Origin: Escherichia coli
Lineage (GTDB): Bacteria; Pseudomonadota; Gammaproteobacteria; Enterobacterales; Enterobacteriaceae
Reading direction: 5' to 3' (one strand)
Length of the DNA stretch: 64,000 bases
Assembly (NCBI RefSeq): GCF_030013205.1
Contig: NZ_CP122648.1
In this document: piece after piece, positions 4,151 to 57,448 of the stretch
How the letters are laid out: the number at the start of each line of letters is the position of its first letter
How positions within the stretch are numbered: the first letter of the stretch is position 1
Translations under genes and position numbers: made by a program
Notes under the pieces: generated by a model
Told to the model about the DNA's origin: nothing
What the model saw: only the letters and a program-made list of their open reading frames with translations
Database searches by the model: none

Positions 4151-4768
4151 TCACACCTCCTTCGGGTTTGCCAGATAGCCAGTGGTATCCCCGGTCGGGC
4201 GGCTGTTGGCATTGGGTTTGATCACAATATTCGGTTTGGTAAAGTGAGCTCGCGGCAACGGCGCAACAGCCGCCAGATCGCCATGTTTTTTACGCAGCTC
4301 GTCGATAGGGCCGAAATCCAGCGCCCGCAGCGGGCAGGATTCTACGCAGATCGGTTTTTTCCCCTCCGCAACACGGTCATAACAACCATCGCATTTGGTC
4401 ATATGGCCTTTCGTTTCGTTATATTGCGGTGCGCCGTACGGGCAAGCCATATGGCAGTAACGGCAGCCAATGCACACATCTTCATCGACCACAACAAAAC
4501 CATCTTCACGTTTATGCATCGCACCGCTCGGGCAGACTTTAGTACAAGCCGGATCTTCGCAGTGGTTACATGAAATCGACAGATAGTAGGCAAACACGTT
4601 CTGATGCCAGACACCGTTATCTTCCTGCCAGTCACCGCCAGCATATTCATAAATGCGGCGGAAGCTGACTTCCGGCGTCAGATCTTTATAGTCTTTACAG
4701 GCCAGCTCGCATGTTTTGCAACCGGTGCAACGGCTGGAATCAATAAAAAATCCATACTGGGTTGTCAT
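4151..4768 (-). CDS. dmsB: DMSO reductase iron-sulfur subunit
   Basis: 205-aa ORF with four Cys clusters (CxxCxxCxxxCP), ferredoxin-type. Confidence 0.93.
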   Translation of the reverse strand: MTTQYGFFIDSSRCTGCKTCELACKDYKDLTPEVSFRRIYEYAGGDWQEDNGVWHQNVFAYYLSISCNHCEDPACTKVCPSGAMHKREDGFVVVDEDVCIGCRYCHMACPYGAPQYNETKGHMTKCDGCYDRVAEGKKPICVESCPLRALDFGPIDELRKKHGDLAAVAPLPRAHFTKPNIVIKPNANSRPTGDTTGYLANPKEV

Positions 4769-4778
4769 CGGTTACTCC

Positions 4779-7223
4779 TTACACCTTTTCAACCTGAACA
4801 AGGTTTGTATGTGACGGATTCCCCTTAGCGAGAGGAGACGGACGTTGAGTGGTCAGTACGTTGATACAACCGCCCTTATCGACACGTTTTGCATCCGGGT
4901 CATACCAGGCACCTTCACCCAGTGCGACCACACCCGGCATCATTCGTGGCGTCACTTTCGCCTCAATATGAACTTCACCACGGTCATTAAAGATCCTGAC
5001 ATTATCGCCGTTGTTGATACCGCGTTTTTGTGCATCAAGCGGGTTGATCCACATTTCCTGACGGCAAGCTGCTTTCAGCACATCAACGTTGCCGTAAGTT
5101 GAGTGAACGCGAGATTTGTAGTGGAAGCCAGTAAGCTGCAGCGGATATTGTTTGTTCAGCGGATCCTGATAACTTTCAAAGCCCGGCGTATAGATCGGCA
5201 GTGGATCGATCACATCGCCTTCTGGCAATTCCCAGGTCACGGCAATGTCAGCCAGCGCCTGCGAATAAATCTCAATTTTACCCGATGGCGTGGTCAGTGG
5301 ATTTGCCTGAGGATCTTCACGGAAAGCTTTATAAGCAACGTGGTGCCCTTGTGGGTCGCGCTTTTTAAAGATCCCCTGCTTGCGGAACTCTTCAAACGTT
5401 GGCAGTTCAGGAATCGCTTCCCGCGACTGGGCATACAGATGCCGCATCCACTCTTCCTGTGTACGGCCTTCAGTAAACTGTTGCTCAACGCCAAGACGTT
5501 TTGCCAGTTCGCTGGTCATTTCATAGATGGTCTTACATTCAAAGCGCGGTTTAATCACCTGATCGTTGAAAATCACGTAAGACATATTCCCGCAGGATGC
5601 ATCCAGTGCAAAGTCCATCTGTTCGGAAGCGGTGCAGTCAGGCAGCAGGATGTCAGCATATTTCGCTGATGAGGTCATGTGGCAGTCGATAACCACAATC
5701 AGCTCGCACTTCTTATCATCCTGAAGGATTTCATGGGTACGGTTGATTTCAGAATGCTGGTTAATCAGGCAGTTACCGGCATAGTTCCAGATCATTTTGA
5801 TCGGCACATCCAGCTTATCTTTCCCGCGCACACCATCACGCAGCGCTGTCATTTCCGGGCCACGTTCAATGGCATCGGTCCACATAAACATCGAAATGCT
5901 GGTCTGGATCGGGTTTTCGAGGGTCGGCATACGGACAAACGGTAAGCTGTATGAACCTTCACGCGCGCCGCTGTTGCCTCCGTTAATACCAACGTTACCG
6001 GTCAGAATCGCCAGCATCGAGATAGCACGGGTTGCGATTTCACCGTTAGCGTGACGCTGCGGGCCCCATCCCTGGCTGATGAACGCCGGTTTGGTACTAC
6101 CGATTTCACGAGCCAATTTGATGATTTTGTCTGCCGGAACACCGGTGATTTGCGAGGCCCATTCCGGCGTTTTAGCCACGCCATCTGGCCCTTCACCCAG
6201 AATATAAGCTTTATAGTGACCATTTTTCGGCGCACTGGCTGGCAGTGTTTTCTCGTCGTAGCCAACGCAATATTTATCGAGGAATGCCTGATCCACCAGG
6301 TTTTCGGTGATCATGACATACGCCAGACCGTTAACCAGTGCGGCATCTGTTCCCGGACGAATAGGGATCCACTCATCTTCGCGCCCGGCACCGGTGTCGG
6401 TATAGCGCGGATCGATGATGATCATGCGAGCATTAGATTTCTGGCGCGCCTGTTCAAGATAGTAAGTCACCCCACCGCCACTCATTCGCGTTTCGCCAGG
6501 GTTATTACCAAACAGCACTACCAGTTTACTGTTTTCGATATCCGACGGGCTGTTACCATCTGCCCAGCCGCCGTAGGTATAGTTCAAACCTTCCGCAATT
6601 TGCGCGGAAGAGTAGTCACCGTAATGGTTCAGATAACCGCCGCAGCAGTTCATCAGGCGAGCGACCAGGGTATTTCCCGGCGGCCAGGAGCGGGTCATGG
6701 TGCCACCCAGCGTACCGGTGCCATAGTTCAGATAGATGGATTCGTTGCCGTACTCTTTGATCAGGCGCTGCATATTGGTCGCGATGATGTCGTAGGCTTC
6801 TTCCCAGCTAATGCGCTCGAATTTGCCTTCACCGCGCGCCCCGACTCGTTTCATCGGATATTTCAGGCGGTCCGGATTGTAGACACGGCGACGCATGGAA
6901 CGCCCACGCAGACAGGCGCGCACCTGGTGCAGGCCGTCATAGTTGTCATCGCCGGTATTATCCGTTTCAACATATTTAATTTCACCGTCCACAACGTGCA
7001 TACGTAGCGGGCAGCGACTACCACAGTTAACTGTACAGGCGCTCCAGATAACCTTTTCGTCTGATTTTGTTGGAATGGCGCTATCGACAGCGTGCGCAAT
7101 CCGACTAAAAGGTAATGTTAACGCGCTGCTTGCCATTGCCAGGCCGCCGATCGCTGTCGTTTTTACCAAACCACGGCGACTCACCTCAGCAGCCAATACC
7201 GCATCAGGGATTTTCGTTTTCAT
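4779..7223 (-). CDS. dmsA: DMSO reductase catalytic molybdopterin subunit with Tat signal
   Basis: 814-aa ORF, N-terminal SRRGLVK twin-arginine motif, molybdopterin oxidoreductase family. Confidence 0.95.
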   Translation of the reverse strand: MKTKIPDAVLAAEVSRRGLVKTTAIGGLAMASSALTLPFSRIAHAVDSAIPTKSDEKVIWSACTVNCGSRCPLRMHVVDGEIKYVETDNTGDDNYDGLHQVRACLRGRSMRRRVYNPDRLKYPMKRVGARGEGKFERISWEEAYDIIATNMQRLIKEYGNESIYLNYGTGTLGGTMTRSWPPGNTLVARLMNCCGGYLNHYGDYSSAQIAEGLNYTYGGWADGNSPSDIENSKLVVLFGNNPGETRMSGGGVTYYLEQARQKSNARMIIIDPRYTDTGAGREDEWIPIRPGTDAALVNGLAYVMITENLVDQAFLDKYCVGYDEKTLPASAPKNGHYKAYILGEGPDGVAKTPEWASQITGVPADKIIKLAREIGSTKPAFISQGWGPQRHANGEIATRAISMLAILTGNVGINGGNSGAREGSYSLPFVRMPTLENPIQTSISMFMWTDAIERGPEMTALRDGVRGKDKLDVPIKMIWNYAGNCLINQHSEINRTHEILQDDKKCELIVVIDCHMTSSAKYADILLPDCTASEQMDFALDASCGNMSYVIFNDQVIKPRFECKTIYEMTSELAKRLGVEQQFTEGRTQEEWMRHLYAQSREAIPELPTFEEFRKQGIFKKRDPQGHHVAYKAFREDPQANPLTTPSGKIEIYSQALADIAVTWELPEGDVIDPLPIYTPGFESYQDPLNKQYPLQLTGFHYKSRVHSTYGNVDVLKAACRQEMWINPLDAQKRGINNGDNVRIFNDRGEVHIEAKVTPRMMPGVVALGEGAWYDPDAKRVDKGGCINVLTTQRPSPLAKGNPSHTNLVQVEKV

Positions 7224-9030: not shown

Positions 9031-9552
9031 ATGCGGGACTTCATTGCCGATAAAGAGTTATCTGACCACCAACCACTTCAGGAAAGTGACGCACTCAGCG
9101 GATCCATTGATGCCGCCAACGACGACGAACACGAAGAAAACAAGAAAAAGCGTTCCTACAAAAAAGGAGCGACTTTACGGCTGGATGGTCCGATCGCCGG
9201 GCTTTGCTCTCTGGAAAAAGGCGCGGCATATATTGGGCTAACAAAATCTGCACTGCGCGTAGCCATTCATCGCGGTCAAATGCCGGGACACAAGACGCGC
9301 ACAAACCCGGAAGATGAAAACTCAGACGGAGTATGGTGGTTTAACGCCAAAGAGTGGGACGCACTGGCTGACGAGCTACCGGAACTTGAGCCACCAGAAT
9401 GGCACAACTGGAAAAGTTACTGGACGTATGACCGCCAGAAAAGAAAGTTCTTTCCAGCTAATAAAGAAGACTGCCAGACCATTAACGGTAAGCGAGTTTA
9501 TACAGGCAGAAGCTCAAAACTGAACCAACTCAGAAACAACAGAGGCAACTAA
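9031..9552 (+). CDS. first rightward early gene, possible Cox/Apl-like HTH regulator (unusually long)
   Basis: ATG with GAGGA RBS; HTH-like stretch IGLTKSALRVAIHRGQMPG; occupies the position of cox/apl. Confidence 0.35.
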   Translation: MRDFIADKELSDHQPLQESDALSGSIDAANDDEHEENKKKRSYKKGATLRLDGPIAGLCSLEKGAAYIGLTKSALRVAIHRGQMPGHKTRTNPEDENSDGVWWFNAKEWDALADELPELEPPEWHNWKSYWTYDRQKRKFFPANKEDCQTINGKRVYTGRSSKLNQLRNNRGN

Positions 9553-46690: not shown

Positions 46691-46715
46691 ATTAACTACA
46701 CCATTAACTACACCG
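46691..46715. repeat. island-end repeat attaactacaccattaactacaccg (tandem 12-mers)
   Basis: Near-identical 25-mer at 57068..57092; both followed by CGAACAA-type motifs. Confidence 0.6.
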
Positions 46716-47303
46716 CTTCACGAACAATATCGAACAACCGCGAACAAAGATCAACACGCTTTAATCATTATCATTTTCCGGCTATCCGTCATGAAGCTGG
46801 TGGATGATCTGCGTGGTGATTTCCACCATTCAGAGCAGGGGCGGTCATCATGACCATGCCATAACAAAAACCCCATATTCGTGGTTTTTCTGTGTCGGGG
46901 CTATTCTGCTGTTGCCGTGCTGGTGGATATTCTCCGGTATGCGGCTCCCCATATCGGCATCAGGCCCACCAGCGTGAAGCGTTTTTCATTTTTCGCGGGT
47001 ATAAAAAATCGATGGGGCGGGCAGTCCTGAAGACGTCAGGGTACGGAGATTTGACCCGCCCCTCCCTGTGCATGAGCACAATAAGTAACCGAAGGCGGAA
47101 TTCCGCCCTCGGTACTTACATATGAGAAACGATATTTCTTCCACCGATACCCTTTATTTGGGTATTGCGAGTAAGCCCCAAAATCTGGGTGTTACTCTTA
47201 CTACCCAAACTACGGGTAGTTTCCGTAGTTTCATGGTCGAGTTGCAAATCTGCAACTCACCCACCAGCCAACGCAATTTTGCGTTATCGGGAATATCAGC
47301 AAG

Positions 47304-47591
47304 TTACCGCCGCAGTCGTTCCGGCTTCTTCCACTGGTAAGTATTTTTCGCGCTCTCCCTCCGTTGTTGAGAACGGCGACGGTATGCCAGCAACTCAAGG
47401 ACTCTGGTTCGTATGTTGCGCATATCCACGCCGTTAAGCTCAATACCATCACGGCGCATCACCTCAGCAACAACACGCGCGTAATTTTCAGCGGTGACTG
47501 TATCCGGCTGCGCGGCCTGTTCGTCAGCCAACTGGCTGATTCCACCAGCACAGCGGATTAATCGCAGTATTTCAGATTCGGTCATTATCAT
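47304..47591 (-). CDS. hypothetical protein downstream of terS-like gene
   Basis: 95-aa ORF, ATG overlaps the upstream stop. Confidence 0.5.
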   Translation of the reverse strand: MIMTESEILRLIRCAGGISQLADEQAAQPDTVTAENYARVVAEVMRRDGIELNGVDMRNIRTRVLELLAYRRRSQQRRESAKNTYQWKKPERLRR

Positions 47592-48073
47592 GCCTGTTTT
47601 GCGACCTCATTCACTACGTCATTTTTTACCATCCGGCTGATAATCTGATTACACAAATCGTCAATAATTGACTGCACTCTGTTTACTGCCATCGGTTTAA
47701 GCCCGGCATCACGTGCCAGAATATTGGGGAGTTTTGCCAGTTCCTCGCTTACGATTTCCCCCCATATAGCCATCTCTTTTCGCACATCATCGGCGGGTAT
47801 GAGTTGCGCCGTTTCCTGTTCGAACTTGAGGCGTTCACGTTCGGACTGATACCAGGCCTTACGGTCTTGTGGCTCCATTTCTTCCAGTGATGCCGGAACG
47901 GGAAGATCAAGAAAACAGGTCAGAATGTCAGTCACCCGATAGAGTTTCAGCTTGTCATGCCCTCCGGCTGGCTGGATGTTTTTCAGCCTTGCCGCCGCAG
48001 TCTGACGACATATTCCCGCTATCGCCGCCAGTTGATTAATGTTCAGCATCAGATTTTTCAGTTCTCGATCCAT
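47588..48073 (-). CDS. Nu1-like small terminase subunit / packaging-redirection (Rpp-like) protein
   Basis: ATG at 48073 (MDRELKNLMLNINQLAAIAGICRQTAAARL...), N-terminal wHTH plus coiled coil resembling lambda Nu1; the track start at 48160 is TTG. Confidence 0.55.
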   Translation of the reverse strand: MDRELKNLMLNINQLAAIAGICRQTAAARLKNIQPAGGHDKLKLYRVTDILTCFLDLPVPASLEEMEPQDRKAWYQSERERLKFEQETAQLIPADDVRKEMAIWGEIVSEELAKLPNILARDAGLKPMAVNRVQSIIDDLCNQIISRMVKNDVVNEVAKQA

Positions 48074-48226
48074 ACCCGCTCCAGAATGTTTTAAACATGC
48101 ATCTTGCGAACAACTTTCAGAAGAGGTCAAAAAATGCGCTATATGTTGAGCATAAAACAAGCAAAATTAACATGCCAAAAATAAAAATACTTAAAATTCA
48201 ATACAATATGAAGATGATGATGACGA

Positions 48227-48322
48227 ATGAAAATGCAAAAACTAGCCTTTTTCCGCGCCGCTCCCGCCCCGTGGCAGACCACTCCACCGGGAGGACCCGT
48301 AAAAAAGGCGGCTGTCGCCGCC
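48227..48322. repeat. conserved intergenic element A (about 72 nt shared with element B, then a GC hairpin)
   Basis: About 85 percent identical to 50761..50832; hairpin ggcggctgtcgccgcc at 48307..48322. Confidence 0.6.
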
Positions 48323-48329
48323 CTTGTTG

Positions 48330-50243
48330 TCATGCTCCACTCGATTTCAGTAATCCGCGATAATCGAGGGCCGCGACACCTGCATCTATGCGCACTTTCC
48401 AGGCGACACCATCAACAGTAAAGCCCACCTGCTCCTCAAGATATGGCGTATCCATACCATCAAGATAAGCGACTTCTATTGTGTCCATCCCCTTAGCTGC
48501 GGCTACATACCATTCCTTGCTATTGGCCTTATCAAGACGTGGCTCAACAATTACTTCTGCCATATCTTTCACCACGTTAATGATGCCGGGGTTCTGATTG
48601 ATAGTGCTCTCATCACCAACCGGAAAGACTGATGACGATGACAGAATGGCGCGACGCGCGGCAGATTCCAGCGCGGCAGGGACCAGAACAAAAGCAGGGG
48701 TAATATTCAGTGAGTCGCCGTTAGCATCCTCCTGGAGGCGCATCAGCTTACGGGCTTCATCAAGCCCCACCATGTCCATATCCTTCGCAATAAGATTTTT
48801 ATGATCGGCATGGAATAACGCTTTACCATCCGTAAATTTGCCGTTGCTGGTTAACAGAAGATAAACCAGATTACCTACTGTTCTGGCGGCCGCACGCCCC
48901 ATCGCCATGGGGATTGTAGTTAACTGGGTCAGGTCATCGTTGATAATGGCCTGACGGGTAACAGAAAAAATATTACCGTATGTGGCCAGCGCAATAGGTA
49001 CACCTTTATCGCTGGTGGTGATGTATTTATATTCCGCACCTTCCGGTACTTTATCCAGCTTTGAAAAACCATTCAGACCAACGCGCTTTGCTTCATGAAA
49101 GTTTGAAAGCGATCCGGTACGCGTCCATTTCTGGAACGTTTCGCCGCTGTCCTGCCAGCCTTTCAGCACTGATTTTTCAGCACCACCAGCCAGAATATGA
49201 GAAAAATCGCTGCTGCTGTGTGTGAAAGCTGCATTAACGACCTGCGAGCGATTTAAAAAACTGCCAACACTGATACCACGATCAGTTAGTGATGCCTGGG
49301 CCATTTCAAAAAGGCTCATCATCGCGTAAGGATTTCCCCGCTCTGGGCGTTCATACCCAAGACGAGAATAAAGCCCCTGACGAATTGCATCGCCTGTTAT
49401 GTTCCCGTTACCGGCATAAATATGAGTCGGGATATTTTTATTGGATGGCGTGGACTCGCGCCCCAGCTCGTTCAACAACTTTTCACGGGCCATCTCCGGT
49501 GTACATGATGCATCCTCCAGGCACGCCATTTTGATCCCGTCGTAACGACTGCCGAACAGGCTAAACACTTCACTTATTCCGTTGATGCGCTTCTGTTCAT
49601 TACCAGCAATATTGGCTGCTCCCTGTGGCGGGGTAATCATTCCTTTAATGGTTTCAGGCATGTGTGAAAAATCTCCTGTGCGTTTCGATTCAATTCGCGC
49701 CATTGCTGTGACAGATGGCAACAATTCATCAGCAAAACCGTGCTTAAGGCATTCTTTCCCGTCCATCCAGGTTTCATCTTCCAGCATGGCGGTAATTTCC
49801 TGTGCTGATTTGCCCGTTTTTCTGGCATAAGCAGGGACTAACACGGTTTCCACCTTATCCAGCAAATCAGCATAATCACGCATATCACCAGCATTTCCGC
49901 CAGAGATACCCCACGGCTTATGTATCATCATCATGGCGTTTTCCGGCATCACAACACGATCGCCAGCCATTGCGACAACCGAAGCCATTGAAGCCGCAAC
50001 ACCATCGATATAAACCGTAATTTCTGCCGGATGATTCCGTAACAGGTTATAGATGGCGATGCCTTCAAACACGTCACCACCTGGCGAATGGATCCGCAGG
50101 TCGATATGTGAGACATCGCCCAGGGCTTTCAGGTCTTCCGCAAACTGCTTCGCGGTAATACCGAAGCCGCCAATTTCTTCATAGATGGATATTTCTGCCG
50201 CTCCGCGAACACCCAGCGCCTTAATGGTGTACCAGTGATTCAT
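48330..50243 (-). CDS. prohead protease (ClpP/S49-like) fused to HK97-fold major capsid protein
   Basis: Single 637-aa ORF; N-terminal serine-protease-like region (HSPGGDVFEGIAIYN...), C-terminal roughly 400 aa capsid-like. Confidence 0.8.
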   Translation of the reverse strand: MNHWYTIKALGVRGAAEISIYEEIGGFGITAKQFAEDLKALGDVSHIDLRIHSPGGDVFEGIAIYNLLRNHPAEITVYIDGVAASMASVVAMAGDRVVMPENAMMMIHKPWGISGGNAGDMRDYADLLDKVETVLVPAYARKTGKSAQEITAMLEDETWMDGKECLKHGFADELLPSVTAMARIESKRTGDFSHMPETIKGMITPPQGAANIAGNEQKRINGISEVFSLFGSRYDGIKMACLEDASCTPEMAREKLLNELGRESTPSNKNIPTHIYAGNGNITGDAIRQGLYSRLGYERPERGNPYAMMSLFEMAQASLTDRGISVGSFLNRSQVVNAAFTHSSSDFSHILAGGAEKSVLKGWQDSGETFQKWTRTGSLSNFHEAKRVGLNGFSKLDKVPEGAEYKYITTSDKGVPIALATYGNIFSVTRQAIINDDLTQLTTIPMAMGRAAARTVGNLVYLLLTSNGKFTDGKALFHADHKNLIAKDMDMVGLDEARKLMRLQEDANGDSLNITPAFVLVPAALESAARRAILSSSSVFPVGDESTINQNPGIINVVKDMAEVIVEPRLDKANSKEWYVAAAKGMDTIEVAYLDGMDTPYLEEQVGFTVDGVAWKVRIDAGVAALDYRGLLKSSGA

Positions 50244-50449
50244 TGCTCCCCCCCAGATGCAAAACCATTCTTATCAAGCCACGCGTTAACCGCGTGTCTG
50301 ACAATCTGCGCCGCACCTGGTAATGGTTGGTCAGGATGATGATTTATGTGGTCGATCCTGTACTGCTTAAGGCGCATAACGGTCTGCGCATCCAGATGAA
50401 CGGAACCACCTTTTACCTCGCCTGTGTTCAGGTCGTTAATACAATTCAC
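50240..50449 (-). CDS. hypothetical small protein (non-ATG start)
   Basis: 69-aa ORF with GTG start and AGAGGA RBS; stop overlaps the capsid start. Confidence 0.4.
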   Translation of the reverse strand: MNCINDLNTGEVKGGSVHLDAQTVMRLKQYRIDHINHHPDQPLPGAAQIVRHAVNAWLDKNGFASGGEQ

Positions 50450-50760
50450 AGTAACTTCCTCTTACTGACTAAACTGCGCGCATTATTGATCGATAAAAGT
50501 GGTAGATAAACATATTTCTATCATAAAAATAGATTAATCAGATTCAGACACAAAAAAGCCGGAGAGAATCCGGCATAAATATCCCGCCATCTGAACACGT
50601 TTTGCACAGGCAACTCCATCTGGCAGGTGAAAAACAAATTTATTTATATATTTCAATTAATTGCAAACTGGTCTAATGACAGGGAGAAAAAAATATTGTA
50701 CAGGTGAAAACAGAAATAACTTTTAATTATCAATAAATTACTACACATGCTGCCGCCGCC

Positions 50761-50858
50761 ATGAAAATGCAAAAACCAGCCTTTTTCCGCGACGCTCCCG
50801 CCCCGTGGCAGGTCACTACACCGGGAGGACCCATAAAAAAGCCGGATTGCTCCGGCTT
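50761..50858. repeat. conserved intergenic element B (copy of element A core, different terminal hairpin)
   Basis: atgaaaatgcaaaaaccagcctttttccgcg...ccgggaggaccc then gccggattgctccggc hairpin with T-run on the minus strand. Confidence 0.6.
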
Positions 50859-50872
50859 CTGTTACTCGTTGC

Positions 50873-51295
50873 TTAAAACGGTATGTTATCCCCGTACGGA
50901 TCATCATTTCCCGCCTGTTGTTTTGCTCTGCTCAGTGCATCAGTAGCCTGCCCCTGTTGGCCTTTTTTGCCGCCCGGTCGCGCCGTTCTCGCACTGATTA
51001 CGCTGTCTGCGATAACCTGCCAGCCCTGCCGCGTCTCCCCGTTCTGTCCGGTCCACTGGCTCACCTGCATGTTACCCGCCACGCTCAGGAGTTCACCCTT
51101 GCGGTGCTTTGCCAGTGCTTCGGCCTGTCTGCCAAACGCCAGGACGGATAACCACATCGTCGCCGTTCCGTCATCTGCCTGGCTGCACGGAAGTGGGACC
51201 GCCATACTCGCCATCGTCATTTGTGTACCCTTGCTGGTGGTCTTTAACTGCGGGTCAGCCACCAGCCGCCCGTAAGCCGCTATCTGTGCTGTCAT
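50873..51295 (-). CDS. single-stranded DNA-binding protein (SSB-like)
   Basis: 140 aa, OB-fold-like N-terminus and acidic C-terminal tail DDPYGDNIPF like the SSB DDDIPF tail. Confidence 0.65.
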   Translation of the reverse strand: MTAQIAAYGRLVADPQLKTTSKGTQMTMASMAVPLPCSQADDGTATMWLSVLAFGRQAEALAKHRKGELLSVAGNMQVSQWTGQNGETRQGWQVIADSVISARTARPGGKKGQQGQATDALSRAKQQAGNDDPYGDNIPF

Positions 51296-51537
51296 GCTGT
51301 CTGCTCTCCGGTTTTAACGTTGATGGTTGTCACCTGTTCCGCTTCGGCAATCTCCCGTTCTGTCAGCGTGGCAAAGTTTGCAGCTGCCGTTGTCATGAAT
51401 GAGCTAATCAGTTCGGGATGTGCTTTCGCATATCCTTCCCCGGCGTTGCGGTCGATGATTTTTATCGACACCCTTAACCAGTGTTCCGTCAAATCAAGGG
51501 CGTGCGATTGTGATTTTTTTGTGTGCTTCGCTGTCAT
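51292..51537 (-). CDS. hypothetical protein
   Basis: 81-aa ORF overlapping the SSB start. Confidence 0.45.
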   Translation of the reverse strand: MTAKHTKKSQSHALDLTEHWLRVSIKIIDRNAGEGYAKAHPELISSFMTTAAANFATLTEREIAEAEQVTTINVKTGEQTA

Positions 51538-51583
51538 AGGCTTTATCTCACAGCAGTAAATTAAAATTTTTGCGTTTTAACCC

Positions 51584-51812
51584 TTCACCTGTTCACCTTT
51601 TGATATTTTATCTTTTAATTCATAATGTTAAGGGGTGAACAGTTTCACAAAAACTATTCACCAACTGTTCACCACTGTTCACCCTTGAAGCTCAATAAAC
51701 AATCAAAAAGGTGAACAGTGAATAGTTTGGTGAACAGTTCATAAATAACTGTTCACCCTATAACATACTGATACAAAAGATATTTATGACAGGGTGAACA
51801 GTGGTGAACAGT
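51584..51812. repeat. iteron array: at least 9 copies of TGTTCACC/GGTGAACA in both orientations (P4 ori/crr-like)
   Basis: Octamers counted at 51590, 51634, 51666, 51676, 51710, 51729, 51750, 51793, 51803, with TATTCACC variants; immediately downstream of the alpha-like gene. Confidence 0.7.
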
Positions 51813-51824
51813 TATTCCATAAGT

Positions 51825-53642
51825 TTAATTTTTGCTATCGTCATTAGTGACCGATACACATGATGGCATCCAGTCTTCTGATTCCTCCGTCAGTGTCACG
51901 TTTGAACGCAAACCGTGCTTCGTTTTCCGTTTCATATACTCCCTGCCATATTCCGCCATTGCCCCCGGCATATCTTTACCGAAGCGCGTCAGTGTTACAG
52001 GTTTACCAAACCCATGTGCCCTCATATAAGCCAGATAGGCATGATAGAGATACCTGCGTGGGCTGAATGGCACAATTTCAGCATTACCCACTAACAGGCC
52101 ATCACACATTACCGACGCCATGAGATAGCCGCAGAAGTCCACCAGCGAATCCCCCTCTCGCTTTATCGCCAGTGCTTCTTCAGATTTCTGCTGCTCATAT
52201 AACAGGCGTCTGGCTTCGTCCTGGTCAGCAAACCGTGTAAGCAGATGGCGAATCACTACCGCCAGCTCACCTTCTATTTTTTCCGCCAGCATTGGATCGC
52301 GTTCGTTCTCCGGTACAACTTCCGAAAAATTGAATATCACCCGACGACGTGAGATCCCCCCGCTGCGGTCACTGAATGACATGGCGTTATTGTTAACCGC
52401 CAGCACTACTGCCGGAATACGCGTTGAGTAGGGGGCTTTGTGTTTCGGGTCAATTGCCACCTTGTCACCGCCTGTAATGGCCTTAATTCCTGCCCCATCA
52501 CCAGCGTAGCGGGTCATATCCGGCATGATAATCAGCGAAAAGCCAACCACTAACGCGCGTTCCCTTGCATCTTCCAGCGCCTTCATGCTTGCCGATACTG
52601 TGTTGGCCTTACCCGCCAGCATGGTGCAAATCTCCGCCATCACGCTTTTACCACTTCCCCCTGGACCTGTTACCTCAATGAATAACTGCCAGTCGTACCG
52701 GTTCGCCAGCACCATGAATAATGCAGCCAGTACGCGATCCGCCTTGCGGTCATTCTCAGCCACCGAACGGCGTAACCACTTCCAGAAATTCGGCGCATGT
52801 GTTGCCAGCGTTTCCCCCTCTGCTGGTGGGCTGAAAGGTAATTCACTGGCAATTAACAACCAGTCGTTTTTGTTATGCTCCCGAAAATTACCTGTTCTGG
52901 TATCAAATACCCCGTTACTGAATCCAATCAGGTTACGGGCTGTATTCCCCATAACAGGCAAACTTAACTTCATGGTATCGACCGCCGATTTAATGGCGTT
53001 CTGCGAATAGCTGATCTCCGCATCAATGAAAATCTGTGCCATAGCTCGCTGTAATTCTTTATCCTGTACTGGCTCCCATACAACGCCGTTGTAATGGTGA
53101 ACAGTGTCAGAGTCAGCATGAATCGCCAGTTCACCGCCATAATGTGCCAGGAGAACTTCGCCGCGTTGACTTGCTCCCATCTGGTTAAGCGCCAGTGATG
53201 AAGCGTTATCGTCTTTTACCCGCTCTTTTTTCTTTACAGGCAGTTCAACTACCTTTTTCTTTTCCGCCTGCTCTGCCCGTTCACGTTCCAGATATTCGCG
53301 CCAGTTCTCCCGTTTCTGGCTGTGCATTCCTTCAGGGTAATAATCAGCATCCCTGACACCTGCCGCTGCCAGTTTCTGCCCGATGGTATTAACAAGCCCC
53401 GGACGCAATAACCCCGCCTGGTAGAGACGCACGCGATAGCGTCCGTCCGGTACGATTTGCAGGTTGTCCAGTTCGGCAAGTTGTTGCTCTCCAAGCCAGA
53501 CAGGTGGCACGTTATCGCCAGCCAGTCGCCCGTCCTGTTCCTGCCACTGCTTCGCATGTGCCCACGCATCACTACCCGCAAAAATGATGACTTCCGTCAT
53601 TTTGTCACGCGGCTGGTGTTTTAAATTTGGCGCTTTTTTCAT
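51825..53642 (-). CDS. P4 alpha-like replication protein (D5_N / SF3 helicase, primase-helicase family)
   Basis: Walker A GPGGSGKS; ATG at 53642 with GGAGAG RBS; the track start at 53657 is GTG. Confidence 0.8.
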   Translation of the reverse strand: MKKAPNLKHQPRDKMTEVIIFAGSDAWAHAKQWQEQDGRLAGDNVPPVWLGEQQLAELDNLQIVPDGRYRVRLYQAGLLRPGLVNTIGQKLAAAGVRDADYYPEGMHSQKRENWREYLERERAEQAEKKKVVELPVKKKERVKDDNASSLALNQMGASQRGEVLLAHYGGELAIHADSDTVHHYNGVVWEPVQDKELQRAMAQIFIDAEISYSQNAIKSAVDTMKLSLPVMGNTARNLIGFSNGVFDTRTGNFREHNKNDWLLIASELPFSPPAEGETLATHAPNFWKWLRRSVAENDRKADRVLAALFMVLANRYDWQLFIEVTGPGGSGKSVMAEICTMLAGKANTVSASMKALEDARERALVVGFSLIIMPDMTRYAGDGAGIKAITGGDKVAIDPKHKAPYSTRIPAVVLAVNNNAMSFSDRSGGISRRRVIFNFSEVVPENERDPMLAEKIEGELAVVIRHLLTRFADQDEARRLLYEQQKSEEALAIKREGDSLVDFCGYLMASVMCDGLLVGNAEIVPFSPRRYLYHAYLAYMRAHGFGKPVTLTRFGKDMPGAMAEYGREYMKRKTKHGLRSNVTLTEESEDWMPSCVSVTNDDSKN

Positions 53643-53938
53643 TTCGGCTCTCTCCACGCGGCAATCATGTTTTTCAGTTCCTGCAGTTTTTTATCCACAT
53701 CCACACGTGACACATGGTTATTTCTGGAAGTCGGGATTTCCCGCCGGAATCTGCTAATAAAGATCTCCACGTTCAGCGAACTATGAAATGAATAGCCATC
53801 ACGAATAAAATACACACGGTCAAACATCAGTTCTTTTACCGTTACTCTGTTACCGTTCTTATCCAGATAAATAGCGCCGGGGATAATTTTGGGGTGTGCA
53901 TAACCGCTGGCAGTCAAGCCAGATAAATATGTTCTCAT
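53639..53938 (-). CDS. hypothetical protein
   Basis: 99-aa ORF, overlapping start/stop with the alpha-like gene. Confidence 0.45.
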   Translation of the reverse strand: MRTYLSGLTASGYAHPKIIPGAIYLDKNGNRVTVKELMFDRVYFIRDGYSFHSSLNVEIFISRFRREIPTSRNNHVSRVDVDKKLQELKNMIAAWREPK

Positions 53939-53944
53939 GATTAT

Positions 53945-54265
53945 TTATCCCCGATTTGAATCAGTATTCGCTTTCTTTATGGCATTTAATGCATCTGTGG
54001 CATTTTCAATGGTGCACCGTAACGAAATATCAAACTGCCCAAGCATTGCCAGTAACAAACCGATATTACCCATATCAATGCGCATGGCCTTTTCGTCATA
54101 GTCCTCATTTTCTGACGCATGCCACATCAGGCTACCAATTGACGCAACAGCCATTGATATATTGTCAGTAGCCCCATCAGCAGCGGAATAAACCTTTTTA
54201 GCAATATCATGCTCACAGTTAAAATGCGGATTAATCAGGTACTGGTAATTTGACATATCAGGCAT
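53945..54265 (-). CDS. hypothetical protein
   Basis: 106-aa ORF. Confidence 0.45.
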   Translation of the reverse strand: MPDMSNYQYLINPHFNCEHDIAKKVYSAADGATDNISMAVASIGSLMWHASENEDYDEKAMRIDMGNIGLLLAMLGQFDISLRCTIENATDALNAIKKANTDSNRG

Positions 54266-54461
54266 GGCACACCCCCTGACGAATACGGGCGGCGAATACC
54301 ATCACGTAGCCAGCCGGGGATTGCTGGCGTGCTTCCTGTTCACTGGTGGCCTCAATGGTAATCACGCGCGGTTGTGCCGTGCTCAGGGCGATAAAACGCC
54401 AGATGTATTTATTCAGGTTGTACGAGTCCCGCCCTTGCGGGTGTCTGGTATAATTTCTCAT
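54258..54461 (-). CDS. hypothetical small protein (real part of a spurious 302-aa track ORF)
   Basis: Internal ATG at 54461 with GAGG RBS (MRNYTRHPQGRDSYNLNKYIW...). Confidence 0.3.
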   Translation of the reverse strand: MRNYTRHPQGRDSYNLNKYIWRFIALSTAQPRVITIEATSEQEARQQSPAGYVMVFAARIRQGVCHA

Positions 54462-54540
54462 AGCTGCCTCGATACTGTTGCTATCGTTGGTGGTTAGACG
54501 CCCTGCATGTGTGCCACCACTGCGGGGCGTTGTTGCTTGG

Positions 54541-54630
54541 TGCATCGCACCATTCGTTTTTAACCTATCAGCAAGTGAATCGCACTTCAAGCCTTTCTCT
54601 GAAATTTTTTTTGTGTATACTGAATCGCAC
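54541..54630. promoter_or_regulatory. three direct repeats TG(C/A)ATCGCAC plus a TATACT -10-like box upstream of the RHH gene
   Basis: Copies at 54541, 54576 and 54621; TATACT at 54616..54621. Confidence 0.4.
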
Positions 54631-54651
54631 CAACTTAGAGAGGATTCAGTA

Positions 54652-54831
54652 ATGGCAACAGGTTCAACAAATAATAAGTCGCAACAGTTAAATGCCAGAT
54701 TCCCGCATGATGTTGTTGCAGACTTAGAAAAAAATTTAGATGAAGGTGAAAGCAAGGCGCAATTTATAGTTACTGCCGTTAAAGGCGAGATCAAACGCCG
54801 CCAGCGCCGCAAGGCCAAAGAGCAGGAGTAA
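54652..54831 (+). CDS. ribbon-helix-helix (Arc/CopG-like) DNA-binding protein
   Basis: 59 aa; N-terminal beta-strand-like LNARFPHDVVADL; GAGAGG RBS. Confidence 0.55.
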   Translation: MATGSTNNKSQQLNARFPHDVVADLEKNLDEGESKAQFIVTAVKGEIKRRQRRKAKEQE

Positions 54832-54873
54832 CCATCACCAGCGCCGTGGTGTGAGTAACTACGGCGCATTGCT

Positions 54874-55062
54874 ATGCAGGACAACACAATGACCGATAAA
54901 GAATTGACCAAAACATTATCACCGGCACGGAAAAGACGGCGCAGAAAGATAGAGCATGAATCAGAAAGATTCGCGCCATGTGCTTTTGCTCTTGAGAAAT
55001 TCCTTAAAGAGCACAGGAAAAAGCTCTCGTTGCAAACCTTGGAACGAACCAAATCTGACTGA
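54874..55062 (+). CDS. hypothetical small basic protein
   Basis: 62-aa ORF followed by hairpin ggcgaccgcccccggtcgcc with T-run. Confidence 0.3.
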   Translation: MQDNTMTDKELTKTLSPARKRRRRKIEHESERFAPCAFALEKFLKEHRKKLSLQTLERTKSD

Positions 55063-55176
55063 TCACATTGCCCACCAGCCGCAAATGTGGCATTGTTGGT
55101 GATGCGTTCAAGTTTAGTGTGTATCCATTGGCGACCGCCCCCGGTCGCCTTTGTTTTATATGTCATATGCTCCCCT

Positions 55177-55386
55177 TTACGCTGCCTTGCCTGAATTAAT
55201 GCGATCCCGGCTTTTAACCCATTCCATAACCTCGGACAGCAGCCAACCTACAGAACGACCGCCCAGATTACGGCGTGACGGGAAATTCCCTTTTTTCTCC
55301 AGTTCATAGCGTGTAGTGCGACACACTCCAGTTAACTTACGACATTCATCCTCACGGATTACGCGATCTTCATTTATTTCACGCAT
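55177..55386 (-). CDS. alpA: AlpA-family transcriptional regulator
   Basis: 69 aa, MREINEDRVIREDECRKLTGVCRTTRYELEKKGNFP... typical AlpA/Xis HTH. Confidence 0.8.
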   Translation of the reverse strand: MREINEDRVIREDECRKLTGVCRTTRYELEKKGNFPSRRNLGGRSVGWLLSEVMEWVKSRDRINSGKAA

Positions 55387-55805
55387 ACAAAAACCTACAT
55401 AAAAAATTACGTATATAAACTTTTCTCTTAGCTGTAGATATATGAGATCGGATATTACTTAGATTCTTTTTTCACCTCTTAAATTAAAAACACAACCTTG
55501 CTAAAGGCTTTGTTCGCTAAGGTTCGTAGAAGCTCGTTAGTGTTTAAAATCGTGTCACGAGTTTTTAAGCGATGCAACAAAAAATGTCGTTACTTGGCAT
55601 TACGCTTGAATTATCTCATTAAAAACAAATAGATAAACCATCAAGTGTTGGAACAATCAAGAAACAGAGAATAAAAGTTCAGAAGAAGACATTCCAATTT
55701 TTTGATGGTTGACATATATAAAGCGAAGATATTTGCAGATATTTTCCGATATTCTACGATTTATTCACGGCTGTAATCTCTTAAAGAAAAAACAGCCGTA
55801 ATTTG

Positions 55806-57053
55806 TCAAGAATTTTGGGGGTAAATTCGCGGGGTCATAACAACGATTTTTTCATCATTGTTCTGGAGAAGCTCGAGACGGTCTACCCATAGATTAAGAG
55901 CATCACGTTTTGCATCAAGATAACGGGAGTGGTTATAGACTCGTTGCATCCCCGGCATCTGGTGGGCGGTAAGCTGCTCGACAATATGCGGATCCACGCC
56001 TAAATCGTTCAGCATGGTTGTAAATGTGTGCCGGATGTCATGCAACGACCAGGGGGCTTGATTAATGCGTCTGTGTGCCGTTCTTCCGTACTCTGCTACG
56101 GATGATTGCCCTTTCAGTTCTCCAAGCAATAAGCCCGTGTGCCTGTTCTTCTCCACCAGCTTCATGACAAACGGCAAGATCGCTTCCGGTATTGGCCTGA
56201 ATATTGCTACCTTCGTTTTGCTGTGTTCTTTCGGCACAGTCCAGAGCATTTCTTTAAAATCCCATTCCTGAACCTCGGAGCGTCTTAGCTCAGTGGTACG
56301 GCATCCAAAGACAATCAGAAGGCGAATTAAGGCGCTGTAGTACGGCGGGAAAATTTTTTCATCCAGTGCGCGGAGTAGCTCGCCAAGCTCCTTGTTTGTT
56401 AGCACTCGCTCGCTTATTTCTGCTTTTTTTCCCACATCACCTACGACCATATCATCAAGAACGTTACTGACGGCGTAGCGACGTTTACGGCAGTACTTAA
56501 GCGCCTGCTTGCATACCTGCAACAAAAAGCCGGCTGATACCGGATTACGCTTAGCAAGCTGGTCAAAACAGGCCAGCCAGTGGCGTAACTCGCATTTATC
56601 CAGCGGCATAGCACCAATCTGGCTGATTATGTGCTTATTGATCCGGCTTTTCAGTGATTCGTGGTCAGTGCGCTTTTCCTTCGCGTATGACTCAAGCCAG
56701 TAAGTGATCGCGTCCTTAACCGTTACAGGTGCTAACGCTTCCTGCACTGTGTGATTAAGCTCATGGCGTGGATTTTTCCCCTCCGCCAGCCAGGCGCGAC
56801 ACTGTGCCGCTTTTTCTCTGGCTGCTTTCAGGCTCAGATCGGGATAGTTGCCCAGTCTCAGGCGTTCCGGTGATACCTGCCTGCCAGTTCCGGCCCTGTA
56901 AGTGAAATACCAGGTTAACAGGCCATTGGTTGAATGCCTTACGCTAAGGTTGCCACCATCATTAAAAAAGGTGTTTTTTGTGGTTGGTGATCCGCTTAAT
57001 TTTCGTAAAAGAGTGTCGCTAAGTCTATGAATTGCCCTGCTCATGTTTCGCAT
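55806..57053 (-). CDS. int: tyrosine integrase (P4-type)
   Basis: 415 aa with catalytic-region motifs (HDIRHTFTT, YNHSRY); at the island end next to cspD. Confidence 0.9.
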   Translation of the reverse strand: MRNMSRAIHRLSDTLLRKLSGSPTTKNTFFNDGGNLSVRHSTNGLLTWYFTYRAGTGRQVSPERLRLGNYPDLSLKAAREKAAQCRAWLAEGKNPRHELNHTVQEALAPVTVKDAITYWLESYAKEKRTDHESLKSRINKHIISQIGAMPLDKCELRHWLACFDQLAKRNPVSAGFLLQVCKQALKYCRKRRYAVSNVLDDMVVGDVGKKAEISERVLTNKELGELLRALDEKIFPPYYSALIRLLIVFGCRTTELRRSEVQEWDFKEMLWTVPKEHSKTKVAIFRPIPEAILPFVMKLVEKNRHTGLLLGELKGQSSVAEYGRTAHRRINQAPWSLHDIRHTFTTMLNDLGVDPHIVEQLTAHQMPGMQRVYNHSRYLDAKRDALNLWVDRLELLQNNDEKIVVMTPRIYPQNS

Positions 57054-57067
57054 TTCCGGTCATCAAA

Positions 57068-57092
57068 ATTAACTACACCATTGACTACACCG
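57068..57092. repeat. island-end repeat attaactacaccattgactacaccg
   Basis: 24 of 25 identical to 46691..46715; 15 bp beyond the integrase start. Confidence 0.6.
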
Positions 57093-57448
57093 TGCATCGT
57101 ACAAGGGCAAACAGCGACGAACAAGGGCGAACAAGAAAAACGAAATTTTCCTTTATAATCATAGCAATAAATGAGATAGATACACCACGACGAACACCCG
57201 CGAACACTAACTGATAAATAACTATCATCTATCGTTGGCATCAGCGACATCTGTCACATTCCTGTCAATAGCGTTAACTGCTTCAAATTTTTGATTCATA
57301 CCTGCCCCCTGGCCCCTGTCAAATGCTTGACGGCTCGCCCTAATTCTCTAAATTGTATTTCTAGAGTTGACGAGGTTTTGAACAGCCCCCTCTCTGACCC
57401 CGGTTTATTCCATCTTACTTGTATAAGATTTGCGAAGGATGTCGAAGC

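Follow-up and report, generated by a model that had tools for sequence, protein, structure and literature searches.

A P4-type iteron array is the probable replication origin of a phage-inducible chromosomal island in Escherichia coli

The 64,000-nucleotide stretch of DNA analyzed here (contig NZ_CP122648.1; hereafter the window) is a piece of the E. coli chromosome that runs through cydDC, aat, serW, clpA and clpS to cspD and macBA. Between clpS and cspD it carries an island of ~10.4 kb, and directly downstream of the island's gene for an alpha-like superfamily 3 (SF3) helicase lies a dense array of the octamer TGTTCACC. We conclude, with a probability of about 0.85, that this array is the replication origin (ori) of the island, a phage-inducible chromosomal island (PICI). 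In type it is a PICI origin using the iterons of phage P4. The reading draws on the identity of the sites, the homology of the DNA-binding domain, colinearity with the P4 and EcCICFT073 origins, conservation and covariation, each of which is apparent from sequence comparison. Function as a replicon is supported by analogy with the homologous rep-ori module of EcCICFT073, which has been tested, and by a 10.8-kb circular record.

Results

Exact copies of TGTTCACC occur 12 times in the window, against 2.17 ± 1.47 in dinucleotide shuffles (shuffle maximum 7). Nine of the 12 cluster within 221 bp (51590–51810), a span in which ~0.007 copies are expected (Poisson P ~2e-25; composition-corrected P ~1e-26). 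Four of these nine start on the + strand, at 51590, 51666, 51676 and 51750, and five on the − strand, at 51634, 51710, 51729, 51793 and 51803. They are joined by three variants, TATTCACC with one mismatch (51655, + strand) and the degenerate sites CCTTCACC (51582, + strand) and TATTCACT (51717, − strand) with two mismatches each, so that the array holds 12 sites in both orientations. An extended form, CTGTTCACC, is common to all nine exact array copies, and eight of them are preceded by an A. The stop codon of the helicase gene occupies 51825–51827 on the − strand, and the extended first repeat ends at 51812, 12–13 nt from it. The initial annotation of this DNA, made from the sequence alone, had described at least nine octamers in ~230 bp, in both orientations and with variants, beginning 13 bp from the helicase stop. 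The number of copies, their orientations, their extent (51582–51810 for all 12 sites) and the distance all agree with our measurements. Elsewhere on the island TGTTCACC occurs just once, at 53096 within the helicase gene, and a search for exact and mismatched copies found no second cluster on the island.

The entire array is contained in a 287-bp intergenic region (51538–51824, no strand) between the helicase gene and a downstream gene of 81 amino acids (aa). Its 12 sites form two inverted units of ~110 bp around a centre near 51696. Each unit has the same order: three tandem sites, one inverted site, an AT-rich spacer of ~36 bp, and two tandem sites. The left unit, read on the − strand, begins with an inner triple (51655–51683, + strand) composed of TGTTCACC at 51676, TGTTCACC at 51666 and TATTCACC at 51655, spaced by 10 and 11 bp. 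It continues with a single inverted TGTTCACC (51634–51641, − strand) and a 36-bp AT-rich spacer (51598–51633), and ends with an outer pair (51582–51597, + strand) made of the exact TGTTCACC at 51590 and the degenerate CCTTCACC at 51582. Start-to-start spacings in this unit are 10, 11, 21 and 43–44 bp. The right unit, read on the + strand, has an inner triple (51710–51736, − strand) with TGTTCACC at 51710 and 51729 and the degenerate TATTCACT at 51717, a single inverted TGTTCACC (51750–51757, + strand), a 35-bp AT-rich spacer (51758–51792) and an outer tandem pair of TGTTCACC (51793–51810, − strand) at 51793 and 51803. Here the start-to-start spacings are 19 (7 + 12 via the degenerate middle site), 21, 43 and 10 bp. 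Between the two units, a central spacer of 26 bp (51684–51709) contains the dyad centre of the array; none of the three spacers is assigned a strand.

Both AT-rich spacers are flanked by sites and are the most AT-rich DNA of the region (GC 0.20–0.30), which makes each a candidate unwinding element. The lowest GC content of the region, 0.20, is reached at 51590–51629 in the left spacer, whose − strand carries the motif TTAAC-T(T/A)(A/C)TG-AAT, common to the P4 and EcCICFT073 origins. The right spacer has a GC content of 0.275–0.30 and carries the motif TAACATACTGAT. Taken as a whole, the 244-nt array is an imperfect palindrome centred near 51696, with an inverted repeat at 51609–51664 and 51727–51782, and as single-stranded DNA it is predicted to fold into one long hairpin (−50.7 kcal/mol vs. 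−22.1 for shuffles, z = −8.25). A reading of the array as a structured RNA was considered and dropped, since scanning the entire island with Rfam yielded sub-threshold chance matches only.

We compared the array with phage P4. In GenBank entry X51522, 16 features of the P4 genome are annotated as 'ori type 1 repeat', ten in crr (4291–4590) and six in ori (9310–9413), with crr placed directly after the alpha stop codon at 4636. Eleven of the 16 are exact copies of TGTTCACC, of which the P4 genome contains no others; the remaining type 1 repeats are single-base variants, including one in crr, TATTCACC, that is also present in the array. The P4 iteron sequence given in the initial annotation is correct, TGTTCACC being the 'ori type 1 repeat' of X51522. 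A BLAST search of the array against a phage collection matched P4 ori at 9304–9378 (78.7% identity over 73 bp, covering the left inner triple), not crr; the same search also matched vB_KppS-Ant, a 16.5-kb induced element. In a five-way alignment, P4 ori (9300–9420), the two halves of the array and the two halves of the EcCICFT073 origin fall into one colinear frame with a common spacer motif, TTAAC-TACTG-AT. The octamer of P4 ori is identical to that of the array, and its sites follow the same order in a unit of ~110 bp, with spacings of 10, 11, 22, 43 and 10 bp. The left outer pair of the array aligns with the outer tandem pair of P4 ori, and the sequence of the right outer pair, GGTGAACAGTGGTGAACAG, is identical to P4 ori 9310–9328. 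The arrangement of the units differs: P4 has one unit at ori and a separate crr 4.7 kb away, whereas the island has two inverted units fused in one array.

The gene next to the array (51825–53642, − strand) encodes the putative initiator, a 605-aa alpha-like SF3 helicase that RefSeq names 'DNA primase family protein'. It has Pfam matches to D5_N, a DUF5906 P-loop and Pox_D5/winged helix, and is 51% identical to residues 320–771 of P4 alpha. Its C-terminal winged-helix origin-binding domain (residues ~497–596; 51855–52154, − strand) matches Pox_D5, and the last ~100 residues match PDB 1KA8, the origin-binding domain of P4, with an E-value of 1.8e-24. P4 alpha binds the origin repeats via this C-terminal winged helix, then unwinds and primes (PMC4234260; PMC4889955; PMC2777425). 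The two proteins are homologous in the SF3 helicase and in the winged helix but differ at the N-terminus, where P4 alpha has a Zn-ribbon and a Toprim primase and the island initiator has neither. The N-terminal domain of the latter, ~105 aa long (53328–53642, − strand), is predicted to fold like Toprim; Pfam finds no primase (Zn-ribbon, Toprim) in it, canonical acidic motifs are not visible, and an hhalign comparison of its profile with the Toprim region of P4 alpha found no similarity. This end of the protein varies as a module: in Pectobacterium, Serratia and Yersinia the homologues have another N-terminal domain, and the E. coli-type domain is also found fused to AAA_25/RepA-type helicases.

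The initial annotation had seen in these features an autonomous P4-type replicon. The octamer, the ori-colinear arrangement and the alpha-type helicase with its winged helix bear that description out, while the primase region, the combination of ori with crr, and Cnr do not. P4 encodes Cnr and the island has no homologue, as neither open reading frame (ORF) upstream of the helicase gene aligns to P4 ORF106/DUF5375. The island does not contain a strict P4 replicon, because it has no Pfam Zn-ribbon or Toprim primase, a single array without a separate crr, and no Cnr homologue. The P4 genes sid, psu and delta are also absent from it. Because these three genes and a Cnr homologue are lacking and the replication module resembles that of EcCICFT073, we assign the island to the PICIs (EcCICFT073 family) and not to the P4-like satellites.

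In Gram-negative PICIs the ori is reported to lie directly 3' of rep, with iteron sets on both sides of AT-rich DNA (Fillol-Salom et al., 2018; PMC6092414). The island has both features, with a unidirectional int-alpA-...-pri-rep order, the array 3' of the initiator gene, and iteron sets on either side of AT-rich DNA. EcCICFT073 shows the same gene order in its replication module (int, alpA, YlcI, Icd-like, DUF4222, initiator, an iteron region of ~288 bp, a small ORF and ssb). Its initiator, Pri-Rep, agrees in domain set and shows 49% identity over 596 aligned positions, the N-terminal domain included. Its origin occupies the same place, directly 3' of the initiator gene, and likewise consists of two inverted units with AT-rich spacers. 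However, the EcCICFT073 octamer is T(G/A/C)TCTACC rather than TGTTCACC, its wing (the segment of the winged helix discussed below) reads TRKVKGVTQTN rather than KRKTKHGLRSN, and its packaging genes and chromosomal attachment site differ from those of the island studied here. The rep-ori module of EcCICFT073 is reported to allow a temperature-sensitive plasmid to persist at the restrictive temperature, and to do so less well when rep or ori is deleted (PMC6092414). The origins of SaPIs and other Gram-positive PICIs are likewise found 3' of rep, with iterons flanking AT-rich DNA and allele-specific pairing of rep and ori, a likeness taken from the summary in PMC6092414; their iteron sequences are unrelated and their initiator lineage is different.

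To follow the array through relatives of the island, we examined 420 bp after the stop codon in 80 close relatives from IMG/VR. Between six and nine exact copies of TGTTCACC are kept in 79 of the 80, and column conservation is 98.7% in iterons vs. 94.2% in spacers, a difference that is weak evidence by itself among such closely related sequences. In vB_KppS-Ant, at 75% DNA identity, the positions of the sites are kept while the spacers have diverged. A wider scan, with one genome per species, gave 80 homologues in the Enterobacterales. An array directly follows the stop codon in nearly all homologues of ~560–605 aa, and its octamer differs by lineage. It is TGTTCACC in Citrobacter, Klebsiella, Raoultella, Pluralibacter and Pectobacterium, TCTCCACC in Rahnella, Yersinia and Edaphovirga, TCTCCACT in Erwinia, TGTCCGCC or TGTCCACC in Serratia, TGTCTACC in Kluyvera georgiana, TATCTACC in Raoultella ornithinolytica and TATACAC in Oceanisphaera; a more distant relative, Serratia phage Scapp, has TTGCACTTTT repeats. 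Two of the loci (L093 and L103) have no clearly enriched octamer after the gene. The longer P4-like alpha homologues of 774–777 aa (L158–L165, from Yersinia, Pantoea, Serratia and Rahnella; ~55% identity) have no TGTTCACC in 450 bp downstream, and over the first 350 bp no octamer is clearly enriched. With the seeds used, the Pasteurella Pmp7 homologue gave no clear direct-repeat family downstream, and it is excluded from the covariation table.

An alignment of the C-terminal domain shows that it is mostly near-invariant among the short proteins, except that the wing, which follows EYGxEY, changes with each iteron class. In the island initiator the wing spans residues 571–584, KRKTKHGLRSNVTL (51891–51932, − strand). 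One IMG/VR relative, L062 (IMGVR_UViG_2784132061_000002, 4690–5050), encodes a helicase 95% identical to that of the island, and the iterons of its array read TGTTCAT(T/C), not TGTTCACC. Of the 31 substitutions in this helicase, five are in wing residues 572–578, where KRKTKHGL has become KKRTTAGV, and L062 has the appearance of a natural specificity switch. The Kluyvera protein, 85% identical, has a rewritten wing and TGTCTACC sites. Pectobacterium proteins, conversely, have another N-terminal domain and the same wing, and keep TGTTCACC. Across these comparisons iteron identity tracks the winged helix, and neither the N-terminus nor the packaging genes, as expected if the winged-helix domain binds the repeats. 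The natural variants point to wing residues 572–578 as the candidate specificity determinant.

Of 5426 complete E. coli genomes, 593 contain the 287-bp array region, always without annotation, and 52 contain the complete island. Up to six copies of the array are found in one E. coli genome, where co-resident islands would share one initiator and origin specificity. NZ_CP148328.1, a circular record of 10,790 bp that was submitted as a complete E. coli plasmid, is essentially this island; it is without the 81-aa and ssb genes, has an extra 'tail assembly protein' gene, and its array is intact. This record suggests an extrachromosomal circular form.

The island extends approximately from 46691 to 57133 (no strand), with clpS on one side and yljB/cspD on the other. 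Copies of an imperfect direct repeat, ATTAACTACACCATT(A/G)ACTACACC and then CGAACAA-type repeats, mark its two ends (46691–46756 and 57068–57133). No tRNA gene was found at the island borders, and tRNA-targeted integration was rejected on that account. An integrase (55806–57044, − strand) and an AlpA-type regulator with a Pfam Phage_AlpA match (55177–55386, − strand) mark its regulatory end. The gene order, taken from the RefSeq annotation of an identical copy in strain KGu016, is integrase, AlpA-type, YlcI/YnfO, Icd-like, DUF4222, initiator and array, and after the array come the 81-aa ORF, a single-strand DNA-binding protein (SSB), a fusion of ClpP protease and major capsid protein, and a DUF1441 protein resembling a small terminase (TerS). 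The 81-aa gene (51292–51537, − strand) is conserved (phrog_1231), and the same position is filled in EcCICFT073; ssb follows at 50873–51295 (− strand).

Beyond ssb, a single gene of 637 aa (48330–50243, − strand) encodes a ClpP-like prohead protease joined to an HK97-type major capsid protein, and no portal or large terminase gene is found among the annotated genes of the 10-kb island. A 94-nt direct repeat, 88% identical between its copies at 48227–48320 and 50761–50854, is located in two intergenic regions, one upstream of the capsid-protease gene and one upstream of DUF1441/terS. Read on the − strand, both copies start with an intrinsic-terminator hairpin, after which come a conserved GC-rich hairpin and a U-rich stretch. 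The terminator stems of the two copies differ in sequence, and both pair. The repeat has no significant Rfam match; it may serve the late genes as a common leader or as a regulatory element.

Discussion

If the array is the island's origin, its use would follow induction and excision of the island. The 605-aa SF3 helicase would then bind the 12 TGTTCACC-type sites via its C-terminal winged helix, the wing setting the sequence specificity. Most of the site spacings (~10, 11, 21 and 43–44 bp) are near whole helical turns, which would give phased sites flanking the two AT-rich spacers. Hexamers formed by the bound helicase would open the DNA at the spacers and unwind it in the outward direction. 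The exposed single strands would be covered by the SSB of the island, and replication, of the theta type and from an iteron-type origin, would be finished by host polymerase.

Several points weigh against this reading. We infer helicase binding, melting, initiation and bidirectionality at the array from sequence. P4 alpha needs its Zn-ribbon and Toprim domains for self-priming. The initiator lacks both, and its predicted Toprim-like fold shows no recognisable catalytic motifs; we therefore assume that the primers would come from host DnaG or from a non-canonical activity. Whereas P4 depends on two iteron regions that lie apart, ori and crr, only one is present here. The circular record NZ_CP148328.1 could be an excised circle or an assembly artefact rather than a product of stable replication. 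Finally, the array sits between co-oriented genes, and consensus scans of 51200–52000 found neither a sigma-70-like promoter nor a terminator, a setting that may allow read-through and a role as an operator.

The last point leads to an alternative in which the array is mainly a transcriptional operator, through which the helicase would control the two genes downstream, the 81-aa gene and ssb, by acting on read-through or on their expression. Iteron-binding initiators often autoregulate, and the co-oriented genes with no terminator-like site between them would suit such a role. On the other hand, regulation of this kind lacks a recognizable sigma-70-like promoter in the scanned interval, AT-rich spacers flanked by phased sites are the architecture of P4 and PICI origins, and NZ_CP148328.1 has lost both of the genes to be regulated yet keeps the full array. 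We consider it unlikely that the array is mainly an operator; a secondary regulatory role beside that of an origin is possible.

The array could also be only a cis-acting enhancer of the crr kind, with the true initiation site elsewhere on the island and both elements required. Like P4 crr it lies directly downstream of the initiator gene, and it shares with crr the octamer, the TATTCACC variant and a two-unit structure; moreover, crr is needed in cis for P4 replication (established in the P4 literature and mentioned in PMC6092414). The units of crr, however, are direct repeats of 120 bp with a 9-bp tandem spacing and more degenerate sites, and the array follows P4 ori, not crr, in sequence and in the order of its sites. 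No second cluster accompanies it on the island, where the lone extra copy is that at 53096, nor do the homologous loci have one within ±3 kb, and in EcCICFT073 rep and the adjacent region are enough for replication (PMC6092414). The array is P4 ori-like in site order and sequence and crr-like in position; we consider it very improbable that it acts as an enhancer alone.

Even less can be said for a packaging (pac) site used by the small terminase (DUF1441) of the island. The island does encode a TerS-like protein, and pac sites can be repeat-rich, but the array stays with the helicase gene despite different packaging modules in vB_KppS-Ant, EcCICFT073 and other genera, its sequence covaries with the helicase wing, and its sites are identical to those of P4 alpha; we regard this explanation as highly implausible. 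Chance or low complexity in intergenic DNA that is indeed AT-rich can be set aside altogether, given P-values of ~1e-25 to 1e-26, a count that no shuffle reached, and the retention of the array across genera.

The P4 iteron and the layout of PICI origins were both already known, and in this respect the identification of the array as a PICI-type origin is correct but ordinary. It marks the cis-acting origin of a satellite replication module that is widespread in E. coli, and with an origin and its cognate initiator known, islands of this kind can be delimited, cloned and tracked. What may be new is that one half of a PICI origin is the counterpart of P4 ori, that wing-iteron pairs form at least eight specificities, and that one PICI lineage has the specificity of P4. 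Tentatively, these observations could be joined in a single account, which we consider possible but doubtful: the PICI origin would represent the P4 ori core duplicated in inverted orientation, P4 alpha would belong with the Pri-Rep proteins of PICIs to one family whose wing encodes at least eight specificities, and P4-like satellites and islands could engage in cross-talk.

The P4 and PICI origins have a common unit of ~110 bp. Proteins that are 95% and 85% identical and are paired with different octamers provide a testable recognition code and a possible basis of satellite cross-talk, and if the joint account is true, the wing-iteron pairs would lend themselves directly to use as orthogonal origin/initiator modules. 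The specificity of this PICI lineage, TGTTCACC, is exactly that of P4, which makes cross-talk between P4 satellites and the island possible. P4-like satellites and islands sharing a cell could then fire or titrate each other's origins, which would amount to replication cross-talk or incompatibility between two satellite families regarded as independently evolved.
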